Sequence record: MT150133.1 | Direction: 5' to 3' (one strand) | Source of the DNA: Enterobacteria phage vB_EcoM_IME540 | DNA: 64,000 nt | In this document: positions 2,448-52,851 of the stretch, piece by piece | How the letters are laid out: every line of letters begins with the position of its first letter | Position numbering within the stretch: the stretch's first letter is position 1 | Program-made: the position numbers and the translations under genes | The notes under the pieces: model-generated | The model's input: only the letters and a program-made list of their open reading frames with translations | What the model was told of the DNA's origin: nothing | The model's database searches: none

Positions 2448-2693
2448 ACAAAAGTCCTTTGTTGTTTTATACTATTTGCCTTTCGGCCTTAACCGATAGC
2501 GATTACCAAAAGCTAAAGCTCTACGGTTAGTATTATTATTTATAGCTTTTTAAGCTTACGACAATAAGAATAGAACACGTCGTTAAAATTATGCTCAACC
2601 CAATTCCTCTGTATAGGCGAGGTAATGGAAAGCATATAATGCGCTTTAATTAAATCCATCCCATTTTTATTAGGACACTCTTTATTATTAGCA

Positions 2694-2819
2694 TTATACG
2701 TCGCTGCTACAACCTTCTATCTCTCTTTTGTAAGCCACATCATCCATGATAGGCGAAAGAACAATATAAGAAATAGCCACAGCGAACGCTAGAATTAAAA
2801 TCTTTGAATTTAGGTCCAT
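2694..2819 (-). CDS. small hydrophobic peptide (~41 aa), speculative
   Basis: Hand translation: ATG 2817-2819 preceded by GAGGG; MDLNSKILILAFAVAISYIVLSPIMDD...; below ORF-track size cutoff. Confidence 0.25.
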   Translation of the reverse strand: MDLNSKILILAFAVAISYIVLSPIMDDVAYKREIEGCSSDV

Positions 2820-2826
2820 AGTACCC

Positions 2827-3399
2827 TCAACTCGTTATTTCTATCCAGTGCTTCCTGCACAATGACACGTAAGAATCGTTGCCACCTATAGAAACTTGGG
2901 CTCCGTCCTTAATTGCGATACCATCTTGGATACGAGCCGTCATAGTAGCTTTACGGCCGCAATGGCACACACCTTTGTACTCAACGAGTTTATCTGCCGT
3001 AGCGAGTAATTCAGCAGAGCCAGGAAACAGTTTACCCTGAAAATCAGTTCTTAGCCCATAACACATAACTGGAACATTATAATTGTCTACTATCTTCGCC
3101 AGTTGTTTTATCTGTGCAGGTTCTAAGAACTGTGCTTCATCCACAAATACACAGTGGATATCTTTTTGAGATTCAGCCCAACGATAGAACTCGTATAGGT
3201 CCATATCCGGAGTCACGGCATTAGCCTCTTGACTAATCCCTATACGAGACGAAATGCTATGGCTTGATTCTCTATTGTCTACCGCGGGCTTTAAAAGGAG
3301 TACGCCCATACCACGTTCTTTGTAGTTATGAGCTGCCGTTAGCAATGAAGCGGTTTTCCCGGAATTCATCGCCGCATAGTGAAACATCAAGCTTGCCAT
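2827..3399 (-). CDS. tk: thymidine kinase
   Basis: 190 aa; P-loop AAMNSGKTASLL, C-terminal CHCG...SLCRKHW zinc motif; close match to T4 Tk as recalled. Confidence 0.92.
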   Translation of the reverse strand: MASLMFHYAAMNSGKTASLLTAAHNYKERGMGVLLLKPAVDNRESSHSISSRIGISQEANAVTPDMDLYEFYRWAESQKDIHCVFVDEAQFLEPAQIKQLAKIVDNYNVPVMCYGLRTDFQGKLFPGSAELLATADKLVEYKGVCHCGRKATMTARIQDGIAIKDGAQVSIGGNDSYVSLCRKHWIEITS

Positions 3400-4124
3400 T
3401 TAAATACAACTCCTCTATAAGAGCAATTAGGATAACCTTTGCTTATAGCTATCTTTTTAAACATATATGCTGAAGGCTTATTGGATTCTTCCCATAAGAG
3501 TTTTAATTCATCGTAAAATTTCCAAGATTCGTTTCTTATAGGAGAAGGTTTTCCTGCCATAGCGCCCTTTTTACCGTACATGGGATTCTTTTTGCCCTTT
3601 TTGGCGTTACTCATATTTTCTATGGTTTCAGCGCTATGTTTAAATCCTTTTAATTTTTTAGAGGCTAATCCTATTTTAGCTTTATGCTCATCACTAAATC
3701 CTATTCTATTGGAATAATGGTTTAAACCTTTATTAGAAGTGGTGAATTTAGAAGCTTCTATTCTGGCTTTGCTCCATTTAACTCCTTTTCTAGACCTAGA
3801 CATTTTCTGTTTAGTTAAATTAGATAATTTGGTTCCTTTCTTTTTACCTCTTCCGCCATCAGCAAAATTTAAAGAATGCTTACCATATTTTAATTTAGCC
3901 TTTTCAACTAAAGGAATTTCGGCGGCATACGCCTCTTCTTCAGATTCGAAGAATTCTAATATACGAGTTTTATAAGGATGCTTTTTACAAATATTTTTAA
4001 CTACCGTACCACTTCCATAATACCCGTCTGAAAGATTATCAGTGGAGTGTTTACCTACATAGTAATAATTTGCCTTATGGGTTTTTATTACAGTCAAGTA
4101 ATTATAATGGAATTCCTTTGCCAT
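3387..4124 (-). CDS. GIY-YIG-family homing endonuclease-like protein (seg-like)
   Basis: N-terminal YLTVIK...YYYVGKHST...GYYGSG (GIY-YIG variant); basic region with repeated K/G-rich NPMYGKKG (NUMOD3-like) motifs. Confidence 0.65.
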   Translation of the reverse strand: MAKEFHYNYLTVIKTHKANYYYVGKHSTDNLSDGYYGSGTVVKNICKKHPYKTRILEFFESEEEAYAAEIPLVEKAKLKYGKHSLNFADGGRGKKKGTKLSNLTKQKMSRSRKGVKWSKARIEASKFTTSNKGLNHYSNRIGFSDEHKAKIGLASKKLKGFKHSAETIENMSNAKKGKKNPMYGKKGAMAGKPSPIRNESWKFYDELKLLWEESNKPSAYMFKKIAISKGYPNCSYRGVVFKWQA

Positions 4125-4133
4125 ATTACCTTC

Positions 4134-4340
4134 TTAAAGCGTATTCACATAAGCTATTAATTCGTTTTCTTTCTCATCAAATCGATTGACAAATTCTTCC
4201 TGATGTTCGGGAGATAGCGGGCCATATTCATCATAAAAAGAATTTGCTTCTGCATGCTCATCTAGAAGTTCATGGATAAGCTCAAACAATTTATCTTTCT
4301 GTTCTTTACTCAGACTCATAACCATTGTACCTTTAAGCAA
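4134..4340 (-). CDS. hypothetical small protein (68 aa)
   Basis: ORF track. Confidence 0.4.
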   Translation of the reverse strand: MLKGTMVMSLSKEQKDKLFELIHELLDEHAEANSFYDEYGPLSPEHQEEFVNRFDEKENELIAYVNTL

Positions 4341-4528
4341 TATTCTTCTACATGCTGCTTACGTTTATTTTTATCTATAAAAGTATATTCAACATATTCA
4401 CCGATATACCATTTATCGGTGTTGTGTTGACTTTTTATAGGGCATTTAGTTACTCGGGTTTCGGACCAGTGTCGAATAATTTCCGCTTTATTTTTAGGGT
4501 CAAACGGATGCGGGTAATGGGCTTTCAT
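4316..4528 (-). CDS. hypothetical small protein (70 aa)
   Basis: ORF track; overlaps neighbours, start uncertain. Confidence 0.3.
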   Translation of the reverse strand: MKAHYPHPFDPKNKAEIIRHWSETRVTKCPIKSQHNTDKWYIGEYVEYTFIDKNKRKQHVEEYCLKVQWL

Positions 4529-4967
4529 AATCTACCACCACTAAATTAATATCAGGAGTAAACAAATTAATCAATTGGTAAACCTTGTCCCAATCACCAC
4601 CAGCAATACCACAACCGATGCGAGGAATATAAATTCTTGGTTTAAACAAAAGACCTTTTGCTTGTTGATTTAATTCTATCATACAGTTTACTAAAGCACC
4701 GTAATCAAGATTAGGGCCTGGTTCGTATTGGGTGTATAAATTATAGCAAATTTGGCCCTTATTACCTGTGGCTTGAGTAAACGTGCCAAGTTTTTCCAAA
4801 TGGCCTAAATAAGTGGTTTTATCGATAGCGAGAATAGGCGGATAAGCCTTAGCCAATTGCCCAGCTACACCTGAACCCATTGTGTGGAAACAGTTACACC
4901 CGTGTGCAACATTATTACCTTGAAGAAATAGGGCGACAATATCGCCCTTAATATAATCAATAATCAT
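4500..4967 (-). CDS. macro-domain-like protein (putative ADP-ribose binding/hydrolase)
   Basis: 155 aa; motifs GDIVALF...N...GSGVAGQ and C-terminal IPRIGCGIAGGDW resemble macro-domain glycine-rich loops; assignment from motif recognition only. Confidence 0.45.
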   Translation of the reverse strand: MIIDYIKGDIVALFLQGNNVAHGCNCFHTMGSGVAGQLAKAYPPILAIDKTTYLGHLEKLGTFTQATGNKGQICYNLYTQYEPGPNLDYGALVNCMIELNQQAKGLLFKPRIYIPRIGCGIAGGDWDKVYQLINLFTPDINLVVVDYESPLPASV

Positions 4968-5320
4968 TTAGAGTTTAATCCTCGATTGTATGAATCAACG
5001 AGTCTGTCTACCATAGACGCGCACATTTCTTTGTACTTTTTATCAGATGGAATACATTCAGTAACGTTTAGACGTTGCTCGTATCTTTTAGAAAGAGTTT
5101 TCTCTTTCATTCGACGATGCTCTACGTCGTTCTGCCCATCTTTAAAAGCAGCCGTGATTTTTGAACTGAATTCGATAATGCATTCAGTATTACTCGGATG
5201 ACAATAATCTTTTGCTGTACGGGTAGCATACTCGACAATTGAATTATTACTATCATAAACTTGTGACGCTAATACTCCCGGAGCAATCAACATAAGCGCT
5301 ATAGTCATCTGCTTAATCAT
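4964..5320 (-). CDS. putative secreted/periplasmic Cys-containing protein (118 aa)
   Basis: N-terminal signal-peptide-like MIKQMTIALMLIAPGVLASQ; four Cys in mature part. Confidence 0.45.
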   Translation of the reverse strand: MIKQMTIALMLIAPGVLASQVYDSNNSIVEYATRTAKDYCHPSNTECIIEFSSKITAAFKDGQNDVEHRRMKEKTLSKRYEQRLNVTECIPSDKKYKEMCASMVDRLVDSYNRGLNSK

Positions 5321-5884
5321 TTAATATACCGCCTCAAACATCTTTTTAGATTTTAGATAATTGGCCTTTTCTAGAACTTCAGAAGCATATTTACTGCCTG
5401 CTTCGACGTTCCAGCCCGCATTATAAGAAGCAATCGCTTTTCTCAGGTCACCTTTGTGAACATCAATCCAATAAGACAGTTCAATGTAGGCCCAAGAGGC
5501 ACTGTTCTGTCGTTTTTGGACCATACGAATTATTTCTTTGTCTGACATCTTCCAACCTACCTGTTGAACACGACTTCTTAACGTAGGCAAGTAATTTTGG
5601 AACATGCCATAAGCATGGTGCTTATCTTTATTTAAACCCTGATTAATTCCGGCAGATGATTCCTGCCATAGTAATCCGGCCATAATATATCCTAATCCTT
5701 TTTGATTAGGGGTTTCTTTGAACTTTCCCGACTTTTGGTATTGTTCACCGAAAGCATACGCATAATGTAAATTATCGAGCTGGGTTTCTGTAAATACGGG
5801 TTCTGCTGCACTTACAGAAAACGAACCACACATAATAGCCGCTATTAAAGAATATTTAAGTTTTTTTAGAAAAATCATAATCAA
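5321..5884 (-). CDS. putative secreted lytic transglycosylase (SLT-domain-like)
   Basis: Signal-peptide-like N-terminus; motifs LLWQESS ... AYGMFQ ... ASYNAGW match the E-S / GLMQ / AYNxG pattern of SLT domains. Confidence 0.5.
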   Translation of the reverse strand: MIMIFLKKLKYSLIAAIMCGSFSVSAAEPVFTETQLDNLHYAYAFGEQYQKSGKFKETPNQKGLGYIMAGLLWQESSAGINQGLNKDKHHAYGMFQNYLPTLRSRVQQVGWKMSDKEIIRMVQKRQNSASWAYIELSYWIDVHKGDLRKAIASYNAGWNVEAGSKYASEVLEKANYLKSKKMFEAVY

Positions 5885-47227: not shown

Positions 47228-49210
47228 ATGGCTTTATTATCACCGGGCATTGAGCTCAAAGAAACGTCCGTACAGAGTACTGTCGTTCGTAACGCAACGG
47301 GTCGTGCAGCGCTGGTTGGTAAATTCCAGTGGGGCCCTGCTTTCCAGGTAACTCAAATTACTAACGAAGTTGAACTGGTGGATTTGTTTGGAGGTCCTAA
47401 TAACGAAGTTGCTGATTACTTCATGTCGGGTATGAACTTCCTCCAGTATGGTAACGACCTTCGTACTGTTCGTGTTGTTAACCGTGAATTCGCTAAAAAC
47501 GCGTCTCCGGTAGCGGGTAACGTCCAAACCACTATTACTACTGCAGGTTCTAACTATGCGGTAGGCGATAAAATTAATATCAAATATAACCAGACTGTTG
47601 TTGAATCTGAAGGTCGTGTAACTTCGGTCGATACAGACGGTAAAATTCTATCAGTGTTTATTCCTACCGGCAAGATTATTTCTTATGCTCGTTCTGTTAA
47701 CCAGTATCCGAACCTAGGCCCTGCGTGGACTGCTGAAGTTACTTCTGCCTCTTCCGGTGTTTCTGGTACTATTACTGTCGGTAAAATTGTAACCGATTCC
47801 GGTATTCTGTTGACTGAAGCAGAGAACAGTGAAGAAGCTATTACTTCCCTGGAGTTCCAAGCATCTCTTAAACAGTTTGGTATGCCTGGTGTGGTCGCCC
47901 TTTATCCTGGTGAAATTGGTAGTACTCTAGAAGTTGAAATTGTTTCTAAAGCGGCTTATGATGCTGGTTCTACTAAAATGTTGGATATTTATCCAAACGG
48001 TGGTACTCGTGCTTCTGTAGCTAAAGCGGTATTCAACTACGGCCCTCAGTCCGATAACCAGTATGCTATTATTGTTCGTCGTGATGGTGCAATCGTAGAA
48101 TCCGTCGTACTTTCTACCAAAGAAGGCGAAAAAGACGTTTACGGTAATAACATCTATCTGGATGATTATTTCGCTAAAGGCACTTCGAACTATATCTTCG
48201 CTACCTCTCTGAACTGGCCGGCCGGTTTTAGTGGTATCATCAATCTTATGGGTGGTGTATCTGCTAACGATCAGGTTACTGCGAGTGATTTGATGCAGGG
48301 TTGGGATTTGTTTGCCGACCGTGAAGCACTCCATATTAACCTTTTGATTGCTGGTGCCGTTGCCGGTGAAGGTGATGAAGTTGCTTCTACCGTCCAGAAA
48401 CACGTTGTTAGTATTGCTGATGAACGTCAGGATTGCTTGGCATTTATTTCTCCTCCTAAAGGACTGTTGGTTAACGTTCCATTGACTCGTGCAGTAGATA
48501 ATCTTATCGACTGGCGTACCGGTGCAGGTACTTTCGATACCAACAACATGAACATTAGCACCACTTATGCTGCTATTGATGGTAACTATAAATATCAGTA
48601 TGACAAATATAATGACGTAAACCGTTGGGTGCCTCTGGCCGCTGATATGGCTGGTTTGTGTGCACGTACTGATGATGTTTCTCAGCCTTGGATGTCTCCG
48701 GCAGGTTATAACCGTGGCCAGATTCTTAACGTTCTGAAATTGGCAATTGAACCACGTCAAGCACAACGTGACCGCATGTACCAGGAAGCTATTAACCCAG
48801 TTGTTGGTTTTGCTGGCGGTGATGGTTTCGTATTGTTTGGTGATAAGACTGCAACTAAAGTTCCATCTCCGATGGACCACATTAACGTTCGCCGTCTGTT
48901 CAACATGCTTAAGAAAAATATCGGTGATGCCTCTAAATATAAACTGTTTGAATTGAACGACAACTTCACTCGTTCAAGCTTCCGTATGGAAGTTTCTCAG
49001 TACTTAGATGGTATTAAGGCACTTGGTGGGATTTATGAAGGACGCGTGGTTTGTGATACTACAGTGAACACCCCTGCGGTTATCGACCGTAATGAGTTTA
49101 TTGCTAATATCTACGTTAAACCGGCCCGTTCTATTAACTACATCACGTTGAACTTCGTTGCAACGAGCACTGGTGCTGATTTTGATGAATTGATTGGACC
49201 TTTAGTATAA
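47228..49210 (+). CDS. 18: tail sheath protein gp18
   Basis: 660 aa; MALLSPGIELKET... ; synteny. Confidence 0.92.
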   Translation: MALLSPGIELKETSVQSTVVRNATGRAALVGKFQWGPAFQVTQITNEVELVDLFGGPNNEVADYFMSGMNFLQYGNDLRTVRVVNREFAKNASPVAGNVQTTITTAGSNYAVGDKINIKYNQTVVESEGRVTSVDTDGKILSVFIPTGKIISYARSVNQYPNLGPAWTAEVTSASSGVSGTITVGKIVTDSGILLTEAENSEEAITSLEFQASLKQFGMPGVVALYPGEIGSTLEVEIVSKAAYDAGSTKMLDIYPNGGTRASVAKAVFNYGPQSDNQYAIIVRRDGAIVESVVLSTKEGEKDVYGNNIYLDDYFAKGTSNYIFATSLNWPAGFSGIINLMGGVSANDQVTASDLMQGWDLFADREALHINLLIAGAVAGEGDEVASTVQKHVVSIADERQDCLAFISPPKGLLVNVPLTRAVDNLIDWRTGAGTFDTNNMNISTTYAAIDGNYKYQYDKYNDVNRWVPLAADMAGLCARTDDVSQPWMSPAGYNRGQILNVLKLAIEPRQAQRDRMYQEAINPVVGFAGGDGFVLFGDKTATKVPSPMDHINVRRLFNMLKKNIGDASKYKLFELNDNFTRSSFRMEVSQYLDGIKALGGIYEGRVVCDTTVNTPAVIDRNEFIANIYVKPARSINYITLNFVATSTGADFDELIGPLV

Positions 49211-49347
49211 TCTATTATCCCAGGCTGTAATATAAAGAACCTAAAACCATTATACCATGTGTTTGGTTACAGCGTACATCACGTAGAATTGCGCCTGGGA
49301 TTGATTATTCTCTTGGAATATGATTTATCAACTGTATAACTAAAAAC

Positions 49348-49375
49348 GTCGCAGGCGCAATCCTGCGACTTTCTG
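49348..49375 (+). terminator. hairpin/terminator after gene 18
   Basis: GTCGCAGG-CGCAAT-CCTGCGAC followed by TTTCT. Confidence 0.45.
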
Positions 49376-49378
49376 GTA

Positions 49379-49386
49379 TATAAATA
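49379..49386 (+). promoter_or_regulatory. TATAAATA motif upstream of HNH gene (function uncertain)
   Basis: Exact TATAAATA only 5 nt upstream of ATG 49392; too close for a normal leader. Confidence 0.3.
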
Positions 49387-49391
49387 TAAGT

Positions 49392-50075
49392 ATGATTACT
49401 AATACTCTATTTGAAATACCTATAACAAATCGTAACGTTTCTGCTTTTAAAAATCTTGGGTATCAAGTTAAAAGTGGGAGCTCCCATTTAATAAAATTAG
49501 AAGACTGCCCTGGAAAAATTGCTGTTACGTGTAAATGTGATAAATGTGGCACTTATTATACTGTAACAAAAGGGCGACTTAATGAAACCAATTCTAAGTT
49601 CTGTAAAGAGCATCGTTGGGAAGTCTATTCAGAAACAAGAAAAGAATATTGGAATTCTGATGAAGGCATAAAAATCCGTAAAACCAAAGGGCCTAAAATT
49701 TCTAAGTCTAAAAAAGGTATAAAGATTGAAGCTTGTTCAGGACCTAAAAACGGAAGATGGAATCCTAACAAATCTGAACGTAATAAATATTATTATTCAG
49801 TGAGGTCTTTTACTAATAAGACTTTTAAAGAAGAAGTTGATAATCTACCAAATAGACATCTAAGCGGGATATGTGGTGTTAAAGGAGCTTATCAATTAGA
49901 CCATAGGGTATCTATCAAATATGGATTTGAAAATGGCGTCCCTCCCGAAATAATAGGACACATTTGCAATCTAGAAATGATTCCTTGGGAAAAGAATCGA
50001 AGTAAAGATTCTAAAAATAGTATAGATTTAGATATGCTATTCCATTTAATTGAAGAATATGATAGGAAACACTAA
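49392..50075 (+). CDS. HNH homing endonuclease-like protein inserted between genes 18 and 19
   Basis: 227 aa; Cys-rich N-terminal zinc-finger-like CKCDKCG...CKEH; C-terminal HNH-like LDHRVSIKYGFENG...NLEMIPWEKNRSK. Confidence 0.6.
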   Translation: MITNTLFEIPITNRNVSAFKNLGYQVKSGSSHLIKLEDCPGKIAVTCKCDKCGTYYTVTKGRLNETNSKFCKEHRWEVYSETRKEYWNSDEGIKIRKTKGPKISKSKKGIKIEACSGPKNGRWNPNKSERNKYYYSVRSFTNKTFKEEVDNLPNRHLSGICGVKGAYQLDHRVSIKYGFENGVPPEIIGHICNLEMIPWEKNRSKDSKNSIDLDMLFHLIEEYDRKH

Positions 50076-50078
50076 CTT

Positions 50079-50570
50079 ATGGAACTTACGGATATCACTA
50101 GGGCCTTCGAGTCAGGTGACTTTGCACGCCCTAACCTTTTCGAAGTGGAAATTCCATTTCTGGGTAAAAACTTTAGCTTTAAATGTAAAGCAGCACCTAT
50201 GCCGGCAGGCATTGTAGAAAAAGTACCGGTTGGCTACATGAACCGTAAAATTAACGTAGCCGGTGACCGTACGTTTGATGATTGGACCATTACCATTTAT
50301 AACGATGATGCACATGACACCCGTCAAGCAATTGTCGATTGGCAGAATCTCTGTCACGGTATGACCAATGAAATTACCGGTGCAGCACCTGCAGAATATA
50401 AGAAACAAGCAGTAGTTCGCCAGTTCCATCGTGACGGCAAGACTGTGACCAAAGAAGTTACAATTTACGGCTTATGGCCTACTAACGTTGGTGAAGTCCA
50501 GATGGACTGGGACTCGAATAACGAGGTAGAAACATTTGAAAGCACATTTGCTATTGACTGGTGGGAATAA
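50079..50570 (+). CDS. 19: tail tube protein gp19
   Basis: 163 aa (same as T4 gp19); synteny. Confidence 0.9.
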   Translation: MELTDITRAFESGDFARPNLFEVEIPFLGKNFSFKCKAAPMPAGIVEKVPVGYMNRKINVAGDRTFDDWTITIYNDDAHDTRQAIVDWQNLCHGMTNEITGAAPAEYKKQAVVRQFHRDGKTVTKEVTIYGLWPTNVGEVQMDWDSNNEVETFESTFAIDWWE

Positions 50571-50599
50571 GTTTTTACTTTTATAGCAAATTATGATAG

Positions 50600-50607
50600 T
50601 ATAAATA
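50600..50607 (+). promoter_or_regulatory. late promoter (TATAAATA) upstream of GIY-YIG-like gene
   Basis: Exact TATAAATA 30 nt upstream of ATG 50638. Confidence 0.5.
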
Positions 50608-50637
50608 CATTCAAACAATGAAGTCAAGGAGTTTAGA

Positions 50638-51219
50638 ATGTATTGTACTTACTTAACCATATACACGGGGTCTAAACTACCCCGTCGTTATATTGGCTCA
50701 ACATACGTTGAAAGGATTCTCAAAGAAGGATATAATGGTTCTGTATTATCCCAAGCATATAAAAAGATTTGGAATCTAGAACGTAAAGAAAATCCGCACC
50801 TTTTCAAAACCAGAATTTTATCTTTATTTGAAACCGATAAAGAAGCTCGTATAGCTGAGAAAGAGCTTCAAATAAAGTATAATGTAGTTAAATCTAAAAA
50901 CTATATAAATATGTCATTAGCTCAGCCTGACGGGTTCTTTGGAATGTCTCGTAAAGGGATTCCAATGAGTGAACATGCCAAACAGCTACAAAGAGATTGT
51001 AGGTTAGGTAAAAAGAGGCCTGAACATTCTAAAGCTCTAAAAGGACGTAAGCGACCAGACCAAGCCAAAGCTATGTCTGGTGAAGGTAATCCGATGTTTG
51101 GTAAAGAACATCCGGCTAAAGGCAAAAAGATTAATCAGCCAAGGATGATTTGCCCTATCTGTGGTGTTGAATCAACTCGTTCGGCTATAACACGTTATCA
51201 CAAACATGAAAATGAATGA
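50638..51219 (+). CDS. GIY-YIG-like homing endonuclease-like protein inserted between genes 19 and 20
   Basis: N-terminus YLTIYTGSKLPRRYIGST; basic C-terminus with NPMFGKEHP motif and CPICG. Confidence 0.55.
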   Translation: MYCTYLTIYTGSKLPRRYIGSTYVERILKEGYNGSVLSQAYKKIWNLERKENPHLFKTRILSLFETDKEARIAEKELQIKYNVVKSKNYINMSLAQPDGFFGMSRKGIPMSEHAKQLQRDCRLGKKRPEHSKALKGRKRPDQAKAMSGEGNPMFGKEHPAKGKKINQPRMICPICGVESTRSAITRYHKHENE

Positions 51220-51220
51220 G

Positions 51221-51228
51221 TATAAATA
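51221..51228 (+). promoter_or_regulatory. late promoter (TATAAATA) for gene 20
   Basis: Exact TATAAATA; followed by 5' hairpin AAGGAGC-TTCG-GCTCCTT (51237-51254) and GGAG SD. Confidence 0.6.
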
Positions 51229-51276
51229 GAATTATCAAGGAGCTTCGGCTCCTTATCCCATTCATCGGAGACTCTA

Positions 51277-52851
51277 ATGGCAAACTTTAATACAATATTA
51301 AGTTTTCTTAAGCCATGGGCTAATGAAGACGAAAAAGAATATAAACAACAAATTAATAACAATTTAGAGTCTGTCACCGCACCTAAGCTTGATGATGGCG
51401 CTCGCGAAATTGAGACACAAGAGCAAAATATTCCTTATAATGCTCTTATGCAACAGATGTTTGGTAGTAATGAGCCTGAAGTTAAAAATACCAGGGAACT
51501 TATTGATACCTACCGTAATTTAATGAACAACTATGAAGTCGACAATGCCGTACAGGAAATTGTGTCTGACGCTATTGTCTATGAGGATGATAAAGAAGTA
51601 GTTGCATTGAATTTAGACGGGACAGAATTTAGTCAAGCAATTAAAGATAAAATCTTGGCCGAATTCAGTGAAGTTTTAAACCTTTTAAATTTCCAACGTA
51701 AAGGTACTGACCATTTCCAACGCTGGTATGTAGACTCAAGAATTTTCTTTCATAAAATTATAAACCCTAAAAAAATGAAAGATGGCGTACAAGAGCTTCG
51801 TCGCTTAGACCCACGCCAAGTCCAATATATTCGTGAAATCGTTACACGTATGGAAGATGGCGTTAAAGTTGTAGACGGATATCGCGAGTTTTTCGTTTAT
51901 GATACAGGCCATGAAAGTTATTGCGCTGATGGACGCATTTATTCAGCCGGGACTAAAGTTAAAATTCCTCGTGCTGCAGTGGTTTATGCTCATTCTGGAT
52001 TATTAGATTGTTGTGGTAAAAACATCATTGGCTATTTGCAACGTGCTATTAAGCCTGCAAACCAGCTTAAATTGATGGAAGACGCAATGGTCATCTACCG
52101 TATTACACGTGCTCCTGACCGTCGTGTGTTTTATATCGATACAGGTAATATGCCTTCACGTAAGGCTGCAGCACAAATGCAACATATCATGAACACGATG
52201 AAAAACCGTGTGGTGTATGATGCTTCGACAGGTAAAATTAAAAACCAACAACACAATATGTCCATGACTGAAGACTATTGGTTGCAACGTCGTGATGGTA
52301 AAGCGGTAACAGAAGTTGATACAATGCCAGGTGCTACTGGTATGAGTGATATGGATGACGTTCTTTATTTCCGCACAGCACTTTACCGTGCGTTGCGTGT
52401 TCCTGAATCACGTATCCCTAGCGAGTCTAATTCTGGTGTTATGTTTGATGCCGGTACAGCAATCACTCGTGACGAATTAAAATTCTCTAAATGGATTCGT
52501 CAACTACAAAACAAATTTGAAGAAATTTTCCTAGACCCGTTAAAAACAAACCTCATTCTTAAAAAGATTATTACAGAAGATGAGTGGGAAAAGGAAATAA
52601 ATAATATTAAAGTTACGTTTAACCGTGATAGCTATTTCAGTGAAATGAAAGATGCTGAAATCATGGAACGCAGAATCAATATGCTAACGATGGCTGAACC
52701 ATTTATTGGTAAGTATATTTCACATCAAACGGCTATGAAAGATTTCCTCCAAATGACCGACGAAGAAATTAATCAAGAAGCTAAGCAAATTGAAGAAGAG
52801 TCTAAAGAGGCTCGTTTCCAAAACCCAGATGAAGAAGAAGAGGATTTCTAA
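51277..52851 (+). CDS. 20: portal protein gp20
   Basis: 524 aa (same as T4 gp20); synteny. Confidence 0.92.

Follow-up and report, generated by a model that had tools for sequence, protein, structure and literature searches.

The tail tube gene of a JS98-like coliphage is probably flanked by two independent free-standing homing endonuclease genes

In T4, the tail sheath, tail tube and portal genes are contiguous: the T4 record places the sheath at 96016-97995, the tube at 98112-98603 and the portal at 98687-100261, with no annotated feature between them. In the 64,000-nt stretch of DNA analysed here (the window), which comes from a JS98-like (T4-type) coliphage, the order is gene 18, ORF1, gene 19, ORF3 and gene 20, all on the plus strand (Table 1). 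What are the two additional reading frames, and how did they come to lie on either side of a small essential gene? Free-standing homing endonuclease genes are common in T4-like phages, and we consider it very probable that gene 19 is flanked by two independent genes of this kind, long known in T4-type phages. The initial annotation, made from the sequence, had already described gene 19 as bracketed by two endonuclease-like genes at a position where T4 has none; the coordinates, the gene calls and the T4 record bear out both parts of that description.

The window belongs to a Dhakavirus and is 99.2% identical to vB_EcoM_005. T4 can be aligned across a related locus, where the extra ORF is missing. 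Gene 18 is the upstream host gene and lies outside both elements, and gene 19 is 492 bp long. Judged from their sequences, ORF1 and ORF3 are genuine genes and not chance ORFs, because they match PHROG families (5104 and 314, respectively) and have tblastn matches in 246 and 247 phage records. No paralogue of either was found elsewhere in the window, an Rfam scan of 49100-51400 returned a single chance match to a CrcZ fragment (18 bits versus a gathering score of 95), and a literature search found no paper on these specific genes.

Table 1. Features of the gene 18-gene 20 region of the window
Feature	Position	Strand	Description
Gene 18 (tail sheath)	47228..49210	+	Pfam Gp18_dom_I E=2.1e-41, Phage_sheath_1 E=1e-30; PHROG 23
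Resident 18-19 intergenic sequence	49211..49344	+	Common to phages without the endonuclease genes
ORF1 insert, left flank	49345..49391	+	Terminator-like hairpin 49348-49369, TATAAATA 49379-49386, 5 nt (TAAGT), ATG
ORF1 ('19.1' in some records)	49392..50075	+	227 aa, ATG; HNH-like free-standing homing endonuclease candidate
ORF1 C-terminal D-H...N...N (HNH-type) domain	49839..50072	+	aa 150-227
Gene 19 (tail tube)	50079..50570	+	Pfam PF06841 Phage_T4_gp19 E=2.8e-10; PHROG 45 tail tube E=1.3e-64
Gene 19 5' synonymous block	50084..50108	+	nt 6-30 of gene 19; from the variable-site table
Gene 19 3' synonymous block	50507..50569	+	nt 429-491 of gene 19; tracks ORF3 presence
ORF3 insert	50573..51221	+	649-bp indel versus JS98; imperfect 8-bp repeat GAATAAGT (50565-50572) / GAATGAGT (51214-51221)
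ORF3 late promoter and 5' UTR	50600..50630	+	TATAAATA 50600-50607; Shine-Dalgarno AAGGAG 50625-50630
ORF3	50638..51219	+	193 aa, ATG; predicted Seg-like GIY-YIG homing endonuclease
Gene 20 resident late promoter	51221..51228	+	TATAAATA directly after the ORF3 stop; surrounding sequence GAATGAGTATAAATAGAATTAT unchanged at the JS98 empty site
Gene 20 (portal), downstream host gene	51277..52851	+	Pfam Portal_T4 E=5.3e-193

ORF3 had been annotated as GIY-YIG-like, and the label survived profile and fold searches: the I-TevI catalytic domain is its best fold match, with the GIY-YIG alpha/beta fold, and PHROG 314 ('homing endonuclease') is matched at E=1e-29. The GIY-YIG domain spans residues 1-102 (nt 50638-50943) and carries Y9, Y18-I19-G20, Y32-x-G34-S35, E74 and N91; NUMOD3-like repeats (residues ~105-160) and a C-terminal zinc finger (C172/C175/H188/H190, nt 51151-51207) follow. 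Y9, Y18, E74 and N91 do not vary among 54 relatives, at least 90% of which also keep I19 and G20, and the four invariant residues align with Y6, Y17, E75 and N90 of I-TevI and with T4 SegA-E. The equivalent of I-TevI R27 is R26 in the window and R, K or another residue across the family, and T4 SegA-E have no alignable arginine at this position. Matches to curated models lie below their cut-offs (PF19835 SegE_GIY-YIG, 17.6 versus 25 bits; NUMOD3, 16.1 versus 20.4; NCBIfam grpIintron_endo TIGR01453, 14.5 versus 56), and the only PADLOC match is 'HEase' at E=1.3e-5. Blastp against T4 aligned ORF3 with SegC (29% over 156 aa, E=7e-8) and SegE (38% over 90 aa, E=4e-6), and homology to SegA was also significant.

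Like the T4 Seg family (SegA-SegG, with SegC and SegE closest), ORF3 has an N-terminal GIY-YIG domain with the motifs Y..YIG, G-Y-x-G-S, E and N, and is an intergenic, free-standing gene co-oriented with its neighbours, present or absent in close relatives and bordered by co-converted flanks; the general behaviour of Seg-type free-standing genes has been described (PMC2988022). It differs from that family in having no T4 orthologue, in its position (no listed T4 homing endonuclease gene occupies the 19/20 junction), in an identity of only ~25-38% and in its C-terminal CxxC...HxH zinc finger. I-TevI, from the T4 td intron, is set apart by the free-standing state of ORF3, by length (193 aa for ORF3 versus 245) and by the R27 equivalent, which is not invariant in the ORF3 family. 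RefSeq records routinely call ORF3 an 'HNH endonuclease', a mislabelling of a GIY-YIG protein that could be corrected.

Synteny comparison, proposed as the check on the initial annotation, found JS98 and most relatives to be without both ORFs at the exact sites. JS98, WG01, IME08, MX01 and KIT01 all lack the pair, with breakpoints at 49344/50079 and 50572/51214. Homology to JS98 stops at 49344 (window 48800-49344 corresponds to JS98 L004 1501-2046, 97.4% by blastn); 49345-49391 is absent from JS98, which has 50 bp there instead (L004 2047-2096), such that the ORF1 insert amounts to 734 bp in place of 50 bp. At the other insert, the flanking blastn segments overlap at JS98 2583-2590. The same sites are occupied in other genera. 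ORF1-type genes lie at the 18/19 junction of Winklervirus CHI14, Karamvirus Entb_43 and vB_Ent31, HMGUkp2, Serratia 4S, VR26 and WSPA, and at least six genera or lineages carry one directly 5' of gene 19. ORF3-type genes lie at the 19/20 junction of Mosugukvirus PM2, Karamvirus Entb_43 and ZX13, and Acinetobacter phage Konradin; by genus, the site is filled in Mosugukvirus, Karamvirus and Lazarusvirus. All four combinations of presence and absence occur in Karamvirus, and the two ORFs assort independently at the same sites in several genera. Recent spread of ORF3 is indicated by its 100% identity in three Dhakaviruses (005, Bp7 and QL01) whose 18-19 regions differ. The reading of both ORFs as mobile elements is supported by this presence and absence at identical sites in Dhakavirus and Karamvirus, which for each ORF goes together with co-converted flanks, and by the occupied sites of the other genera.

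A TATAAATA motif had been noted upstream of each endonuclease-like gene, and both copies were recovered, along with one at 50904-50911, within ORF3, and one before gene 20. The window contains 20 copies versus 7.6 +/- 2.7 expected, a count reached in 0 of 100 shuffles. The T4 late promoter box spans -13 to -6 (PMC1524935). Between TATAAATA and the ATG of ORF1-type genes the spacing is 5 nt at seven of nine loci and 6 nt at one more, and no Shine-Dalgarno sequence was found before the ORF1 ATG; this box-to-ATG geometry predicts a leaderless late message for ORF1. The layout is not universal: in VR26 a Shine-Dalgarno sequence is present and TATAAATA is missing. We read the box before ORF1 as the late promoter of gene 19 with the element placed behind it, and not as the element's own. 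In the empty site of CC31 the same hairpin and TATAAATA are seen as the resident gene 19 promoter, and in Karamvirus the TATAAATA before the ORF1-type gene is demonstrably the resident one. In the window, the resident gene 19 box is altered to TATAACTA, and the active box came along with the ORF1 insert. Folding of 49211-49395, a stretch that takes in the insert hairpin, showed it to be structured (z=-3.55). At ORF3, TATAAATA ends 30 nt before the ATG, and the UTR sequence CATTCAAACAATGAAGT is conserved in the Mosugukvirus and Karamvirus orthologues. We also considered an I-TevI-style operator over the ORF3 promoter; the shared part is just a duplicated (ATGA)..GTATAAATA, insufficient for such a claim.

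These signals bear on an alternative in which both ORFs entered by homing in the past and are now immobile or catalytically dead relics, kept for the expression signals of genes 19 and 20. An ATG without a Shine-Dalgarno sequence at the predicted +1 could mean that ORF1 is barely expressed or decaying, and its expression may be negligible. The only late promoter and ribosome-binding-site context now found close to gene 19 is supplied by ORF1, and selection would tend to keep the element for that (for the principle, see PMC2988022), and the variable R27 equivalent of the ORF3 family points the same way. However, many phages have both frames undamaged and at full length, their catalytic residues are invariant across diverse relatives, the identity of ORF3 in differing backgrounds speaks for recent spread, and the four Karamvirus combinations are still segregating. 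We regard relics as improbable, and favour two homing endonuclease genes.

For ORF1, that reading depends on the HNH-like character given to it initially, and profile and fold searches did not refute the assignment: HNH nucleases are the best fold matches of its C-terminal domain, none of the individual statistics being strong. The protein consists of an N-terminal beta domain, a zinc finger (C49/C52/C71/H74, nt 49536-49613), a NUMOD3-like basic linker and the C-terminal nuclease domain. In the latter, D170-H171 close a predicted beta1 (167-171), N193 stands before beta2 (194-198) and N202 lies in a helix (199-205), giving the HNH catalytic signature of a His general base after Asp, a structural Asn and a metal-binding Asn/His. 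The N-to-N spacing of 9 is that of I-HmuI and the Cas9 HNH domain. All of 19 close relatives retain D170, H171, N193 and N202, and the C-terminal domain family, which comprises 5720 clusters, shows D, H, G, N and N without exception in 93 diverse members. We take ORF1 as a candidate HNH-type enzyme with a DNA-binding N-terminus and a catalytic C-terminus, the domain order being opposite to that of ORF3.

Several known nuclease classes were compared with ORF1. The phage HNH homing endonucleases (I-HmuI, T4 MobA-E, I-TevIII) share with it a D/H-H...N...N/H signature on a predicted beta-beta-alpha element, a free-standing, intergenic location adjoining an essential gene, and NUMOD3-like basic repeats with a zinc finger for DNA binding; they differ in that the ORF1 order is reversed, with the catalytic domain C-terminal. 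Membership of the T4 Mob type was rejected, as ORF1 lacks the N-terminal HHIIPRxMGGxDDxxNLVxLTxxEH domain and has its domain at the C-terminus; blastp against T4 MobA-E gave E>0.3 with the HNH region unaligned, and tblastn found no T4 homologue. In LIMEstone1, a T4-related phage, the Hef-like F-LimVIII adjoins the tail tube gene (PMC3296691), and Hef-like endonucleases carry their catalytic domain C-terminal to NUMOD-type DNA-binding modules (PMC3239194). ORF1 resembles them in both respects, but Hef enzymes are Vsr-like with an EDxHD motif, and ORF1 has neither motif nor fold. F-CphI, a DHHRN/Endo VII-motif homing endonuclease, is likewise encoded by a free-standing gene of a T4-like phage, cyanophage S-PM2, and its beta-beta-alpha-Me-type catalytic domain is C-terminal (PMC6083498). 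The DHHRN/Endo VII class was set aside for ORF1, which reads DH(R/K/I)(V/I)(S/P) and is missing the second His of D-H-x-H; blastp found no similarity to T4 Endo VII.

The fold statistics leave some room for a second alternative, in which ORF1 ('19.1') merely resembles an HNH protein and is instead a zinc-finger protein that binds DNA or regulates, leaving ORF3 as the one mobile endonuclease gene. A Cys/His cluster at the N-terminus and a basic linker would be in keeping with such a protein, and PHROG 5104, matched by ORF1 at E=2.4e-77, is labelled 'unknown function'. No curated HNH model in Pfam or NCBIfam matched the window ORF1, and its relatives match such models weakly (HNH_4 in 8 of 90, best E=0.0014; HNH in 5; HNH_5 in 2). 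Foldseek against the PDB returned no significant match, direct sequence searches of the PDB with ORF1 and ORF3 gave noise only, the full-length ORF1 profile found zinc-finger noise only, and the domain matched the Cas9 HNH structure 7enh at E=0.11. When the domain family was aligned with the T4 MobA-E HNH domains by hhalign, D-H...N...N fell over HH...N...H in the expected register, at a non-significant E=0.74. Leucine-rich-repeat matches of the C-terminal profiles (4u08, 4u06) are spurious, as IPPEIIGHICNLEMIPWEKN mimics the LRR consensus, and a PADLOC scan placed ORF1 in no defence-system family. In our judgement a non-nuclease ORF1 is quite unlikely, and we retain the candidate endonuclease.

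Traces consistent with homing lie in gene 19 itself. The 11 Dhakaviruses compared have one and the same gp19 protein, and differences are concentrated synonymously at the two ends of the gene. Relative to PSD9, the first 30 nt have 8 differences against 1 in 398 nt (Fisher p=1.9e-9), and nt 429-492 have 15 differences in 64 nt against the same 1 in 398 (Fisher p=4e-13); between WG01 and the window, nt 31-428 show none. Across the 11 Dhakaviruses, nt 22-30 partition perfectly by the presence of an ORF1-type gene, whereas nt 6-12 are specific to the allele of the window and 005, Bp7 having other alleles there. At the 3' end, a single haplotype is found in all four phages with ORF3, and all seven phages without it differ. 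Karamvirus replicates both blocks, at nt 6-24 and nt 429-459. The blocks fit intronless homing with targets at the gene 19 ends. The 5' block would be the recognition or immunity region for ORF1, and the 3' block the recognition, cleavage or immunity region for ORF3, whose predicted cut in the empty allele lies ~30-60 bp upstream of the gene 19 stop, around AACAACGAGGTAGAAACTTTCGAA; alternatively, the blocks could be hitch-hiking donor DNA and not recognition sites. Ordinary mosaic recombination boundaries, with the ORFs brought in by illegitimate or generic homologous recombination, would suit the high mosaicism of T4-like genomes and the divergence of gene 18, which is patchy between these phages too, but we consider this account very improbable: the blocks adjoin the insertion sites, measure 25-65 nt and sort perfectly by the adjacent ORF around a shared interior, a second genus, whose ORF copies have diverged, shows the pattern at these gene 19 positions too, and a third endonuclease (HNH) type, located after gene 18, is accompanied by a block of its own at the 3' end of that gene.

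We propose that the locus took shape by intronless homing with co-conversion, within the framework of free-standing endonucleases, co-conversion and promoter displacement set out previously (PMC2988022). On co-infection with a relative lacking the genes, each enzyme would cut or nick that allele near its own end of gene 19, and recombination-dependent repair would copy the endonuclease gene from the carrier genome, along with some tens of bases of adjoining gene 19 sequence. The carrier would be protected in two ways: its site is interrupted by the insertion, and the neighbouring gene 19 codons carry synonymous changes. ORF3, just past the gene 19 stop, would be transcribed from its own copy of the late promoter and translated from a strong ribosome-binding site. 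ORF1 lies between the late-promoter box and the start codon of gene 19, and because it displaces the gene 19 leader, gene 19 would now come second on a late mRNA whose predicted first nucleotide is the A of the ORF1 ATG. The ORF1 message would be leaderless and weakly translated, and tail tube expression would be kept.

A bolder proposal, which we offer tentatively, is that the ORF1 family is a large, uncurated HNH-type homing class with a catalytic C-terminus (at least 5700 clusters), whose T4-like members insert 5 nt past the gene 19 TATAAATA such that transcription of the late tail tube mRNA starts (+1) at their AUG. If this is true, the leaderless ORF1 message is a built-in dosage limiter, with gene 19 retaining late transcription as the second cistron; to our knowledge, such fitting into host expression is undescribed for phage homing endonucleases. 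Promoter-proximal placement suggests a route by which such elements spare highly expressed structural genes. This very large domain family stands as 'hypothetical' or 'unknown function' in curated databases, an annotation that could be corrected.

ORF1 and ORF3 are elements of an ordinary kind for T4-like phages, with unusually clear traces of entry. Because the two nucleases are unrelated and border a single small essential gene with an invariant protein, the synonymous blocks predict both targets, in the first ~30 nt and the last ~65 nt of gene 19, from sequence alone. The natural empty, single and double alleles in two genera are ready substrates and crossing partners. If the reading is correct, gene 19, with ORF1, ORF3 and the third HNH type after gene 18, would be a three-way landing pad on which homing targets can be mapped from sequence.

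Across 48800-51700 the window is 99.2% identical to Escherichia phage vB_EcoM_005, a JS98-like member of the genus Dhakavirus (Straboviridae). Most Dhakaviruses, among them JS98, JS10, WG01, IME08, MX01 and KIT01, aligned as three segments that cover about 53% of the query (1569 bp versus 2901 in the query); these phages have genes 18, 19 and 20 and lack ORF1, an HNH-like gene, and ORF3, a GIY-YIG-like gene. The exact breakpoints of both inserts were obtained by blastn against JS98. The ORF1 insert comprises 734 bp (49345-50078) in place of 50 JS98 bp, and that of ORF3 is a clean insertion of 649 bp (approximately 50573-51221) with an imperfect 8-bp repeat, GAATAAGT/GAATGAGT, on both sides. 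In a T4 record, tail sheath (96016-97995), tail tube (98112-98603) and portal (98687 onward) adjoin with no gene in between, as the initial annotation had stated, and its coordinates and upstream motifs for both ORFs proved correct on gene calls and motif positions. The Bp7 record splits its portal gene (L002 4000-5573) into two CDS, 4000-4323 and 4329-5573, unlike the single 1575-bp gene of the window and other relatives, probably reflecting a frameshift or sequencing error in that entry.

Features of the gene 18-20 region in the window and the third HNH-type ORF in related phage loci
Feature	Record	Coordinates	Strand	Basis or position
Gene 18, tail sheath	window	47228-49210	+	Pfam and PHROG matches
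Intergenic element	window	49211-49344		after gene 18
Hairpin	window	49348-49369		within ORF1 insert
Late promoter box	window	49379-49386		before ORF1
ORF1, 227 aa	window	49392-50075	+	between genes 18 and 19
Gene 19, tail tube	window	50079-50570	+	Pfam and PHROG matches
Late promoter box	window	50600-50607		before ORF3
ORF3, 193 aa	window	50638-51219	+	between genes 19 and 20
Late promoter box	window	50904-50911		within ORF3
Late promoter box	window	51221-51228		directly after ORF3 stop codon
Gene 20, portal	window	51277-52851	+	Pfam and PHROG matches
Third HNH-type ORF	L003 (QL01)	1976-2596
Third HNH-type ORF	L005 (PSD9)	1976-2596
Third HNH-type ORF	L015	676-1296
Third HNH-type ORF	L009 (pSs-1)	2501-3118

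On sequence evidence, both elements are mobile, each independently of the other. ORF1-type genes lie directly 5′ of gene 19 in Bp7 (Dhakavirus), Entb_43 and vB_Ent31 (Karamvirus), CHI14 (Winklervirus), VR26 (Gaprivervirus), HMGUkp2, Serratia 4S and WSPA. Genes of the ORF3 type occupy the interval between genes 19 and 20 in Bp7 and QL01 (100% protein identity to the window), PM2 (Mosugukvirus; 83%), Entb_43 and ZX13 (Karamvirus; 63%) and Acinetobacter phage Konradin (Twarogvirinae; 52%), and remoter paralogues are found at other loci, for example upstream of gene 39 in HX01. All four presence/absence states exist within Karamvirus: both elements in Entb_43 and KMB20, ORF3 only in ZX13, ORF1 only in vB_Ent31 and EcL8g, and neither in CC31, PG7 and KaAlpha. 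The proposal that gene 19 sits between mobile elements is supported by presence/absence differences at identical sites in Dhakavirus and Karamvirus and by the filling of the same sites in other genera.

All 11 Dhakaviruses compared encode the same gp19 protein, with variation at the DNA level. At gene 19 nt 429-491 the four ORF3 carriers (window, vB_EcoM_005, Bp7 and QL01) have a single haplotype, from which 7/7 non-carriers differ at at least 8 sites, all synonymous and including the serine codon switches TCG/AGC and AGC/TCT. PSD9, otherwise almost identical to the window, departs from it at 15 positions within the final 64 nt of the gene and at 1 within the central 398 (Fisher p=4e-13). The 5′ end shows 8 differences from PSD9 in 30 nt versus 1 in 398 (p=1.9e-9); nt 22, 24, 27 and 30 split the ORF1-type carriers (window, vB_EcoM_005 and Bp7) from all other Dhakaviruses compared, and nt 6-12 split the window/vB_EcoM_005 allele from the Bp7 variant. 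WG01, without either ORF, matches the window over nt 31-428 and differs at the two ends only. The pattern is repeated in Karamvirus, where five phages encode the same gp19, with nt 429-459 sorting according to the presence of ORF3 and nt 6-24 according to that of ORF1. Two positions discriminate in both genera: at 441 carriers have T and the rest C, and at 459 carriers have A and the rest T or C. Such a flank signature is what would be predicted by intronless homing with short co-conversion tracts (framework in PMC2988022), or by selected immunity substitutions. By this signature, the likely recognition regions are the first ~30 and last ~65 nt of gene 19, and we infer that the actual cut sites fall inside these blocks.

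By homology, ORF3 is a Seg-like GIY-YIG endonuclease, its activity being predicted. It narrowly missed Pfam SegE_GIY-YIG (17.6 bits, cut-off 25 bits) and NUMOD3 (16.1 bits, cut-off 20.4), the latter carried by most of its relatives. The GIY-YIG assignment made at first reading is supported by Seg homology and by matches to PHROG 314 'homing endonuclease' (E=1e-29) and PADLOC 'HEase' (E=1.3e-5). The family profile also matched 1i3j, the DNA-binding domain of I-TevI (E=0.0076). Among T4 endonucleases SegC was the best match (29% over 156 aa, E=7e-8); SegE (38% over 90 aa, E=4e-6) and SegA were the others of the best three, and the alignment with T4 Seg proteins displays the hallmarks Y..YIG, G-Y-x-G-S, E and N. 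In a 54-sequence family alignment Y9, G11, Y18, Y32, G34, S38, E48, E74 and N91 are invariant and I19 and G20 almost so; the equivalent of I-TevI R27 varies, and is not alignable in T4 SegA-E either. A C-terminal CxxC...HxH cluster (C172, C175, H188, H190) resembles a zinc finger. The RefSeq label 'HNH endonuclease', found on orthologues in L001, L002, L003, L008 and L011 and likewise on PHROG 10820, names the wrong family.

ORF1, '19.1' in some records, is very probably an HNH-type endonuclease, most likely with reversed domain order. The protein itself had no match in Pfam, NCBIfam or PDB sequences, and matched PHROG 5104, labelled 'unknown function' (E=2.4e-77). Among 19 relatives C49 is invariant and C52 and C71 almost so, likely forming a zinc finger with H74, and D170, H171, N193, L194, N202 and K205 are invariant. 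In the AlphaFold model (pLDDT 86.1) D170-H171 end strand 167-171, N193 directly precedes strand 194-198 and N202 lies within the next helix (199-205), a modelled layout corresponding to a beta-beta-alpha-metal arrangement. Cas9 HNH domains ranked top in Foldseek, at non-significant values (E>=1.5), and the C-terminal domain profile touched Cas9 HNH domain 7enh (E=0.11). That profile pulls many small proteins, two named McrA by JGI; weak matches among 90 relatives were to HNH_4 (8), HNH (5) and HNH_5 (2). An exhaustive profile search gave 5720 cluster representatives at E<=0.001, with the domain almost always at the C-terminus. D, H, G, N and N are invariant over 93 diverse members, whose N-terminal parts differ (HTH, NUMOD3 or DUF7487 modules), a modular build typical of homing enzymes.

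Other assignments of ORF1 were ruled out: DHHRN/Endo VII type (PMC6083498), Hef-like, Hef being a Vsr-like/EDxHD endonuclease (PMC3239194), and Mob-like. T4 MobA-E place DH/HH, NL/NL and N/H in register with ORF1, not significantly (hhalign, E=0.74), and no ORF1 homologue was found in T4. Residues 183-203 (49938-50000), IPPEIIGHICNLEMIPWEKN, mimic the leucine-rich-repeat consensus, and the resulting matches (profile versus PDB; 4u08, E=1.8e-5) are spurious. GenBank names for ORF1 include 'hypothetical', 'holin', 'type II restriction endonuclease' and 'similar to head morphogenesis protein'; database names for both genes are inconsistent or wrong. The Bp7 homologue (L002 2093-2764) is a chimera, with 93-98% DNA identity to the window in its N-terminal half and just 56-70% in its C-terminal nuclease half; it also joins gene 19 differently, with GGAGG as a strong ribosome-binding site. 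These features suggest that nuclease modules have been exchanged.

Both genes are predicted to fit into late transcription. The T4-type late promoter box TATAAATA occurs 20 times in the window versus 7.6 expected (0/100 shuffles reach 20). The box before ORF1 is followed by exactly five bases (TAAGT) and the ATG; since the T4 box spans -13 to -6 (PMC1524935), the predicted +1 is the first base of the ORF1 ATG, at 49392. No Shine-Dalgarno sequence precedes ORF1. The five-base spacing recurs in 7/9 ORF1-type loci from at least five lineages; CHI14 has 6 nt, and VR26 has a Shine-Dalgarno sequence and no box. In the Karamvirus empty site (CC31, ZX13) the same hairpin and TATAAATA precede the gene 19 leader, and the element in that genus sits after the resident gene 19 box and before its ribosome-binding site. 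In the window the resident box is changed to TATAACTA, and the hairpin and new box, probably donor flank, arrived with the insert. The ORF1/gene 19 junction, TAA-CTT-ATG, is common to 5/9 loci. We read the late mRNA as beginning at the ORF1 AUG, with gene 19 as its second cistron, and predict the nuclease message to be leaderless and weakly translated. ORF3 has conventional signals (its box, AAGGAG at 50625-50630, then ATG) and a conserved leader, CATTCAAACAATGAAGT, also found in PM2 and Entb_43. As the gene 20 promoter is kept, the box is in effect duplicated either side of the cassette. The additional same-orientation TATAAATA within ORF3 may be fortuitous or may serve as an internal late promoter.

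A third HNH-type ORF, distinct from ORF1 (205-206 aa, 34-38% identical to it, with a GTG start and its own Shine-Dalgarno), directly follows the gene 18 stop codon, an insertion point other than ORF1's, in some Dhakaviruses and many Tequatroviruses (pSs-1, RB3, RB7, RB10). When gene 18 3′ ends were compared (window 49100-49210, L003, L005, L013, L015), its carriers had a common haplotype over the last ~100 nt, nearly all-synonymous with one V/I change. In IME08, where the ORF is absent, most of this haplotype is present, possibly as a footprint left by ORF loss or by co-conversion without the gene. The ~135-nt intergenic element is conserved in Dhakaviruses with and without endonuclease genes and contains a long-range stem, CCCAGGC...GCCTGGG; 49211-49395, including the insert hairpin, folds with z=-3.55 (0/200 shuffles as stable). 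The element matched no Rfam family. A weak Rfam match to a CrcZ fragment at 51200-51263, covering the hairpin in the gene 20 leader (18 bits versus a gathering score of 95, E=0.039), was taken as chance.

In T4-like phages, free-standing Seg (GIY-YIG) and Mob (HNH) genes that are patchily distributed, co-convert and interact with host promoters are textbook knowledge (PMC2988022, PMC2993671), and a Hef-like gene has been noted beside the tail tube gene of LIMEstone1. A literature search found no paper on these particular genes, and such papers may still exist. The interpretation of two endonuclease genes around gene 19 is supported, and ORF1 and ORF3 are two further cases of an already known type of element. 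Three features go beyond the routine: the synonymous-block signature, clean and replicated, at either end of a single invariant gene; the ORF1 catalytic domain family, for being so large and still uncurated; and the conserved promoter-to-ATG geometry of ORF1-type loci.
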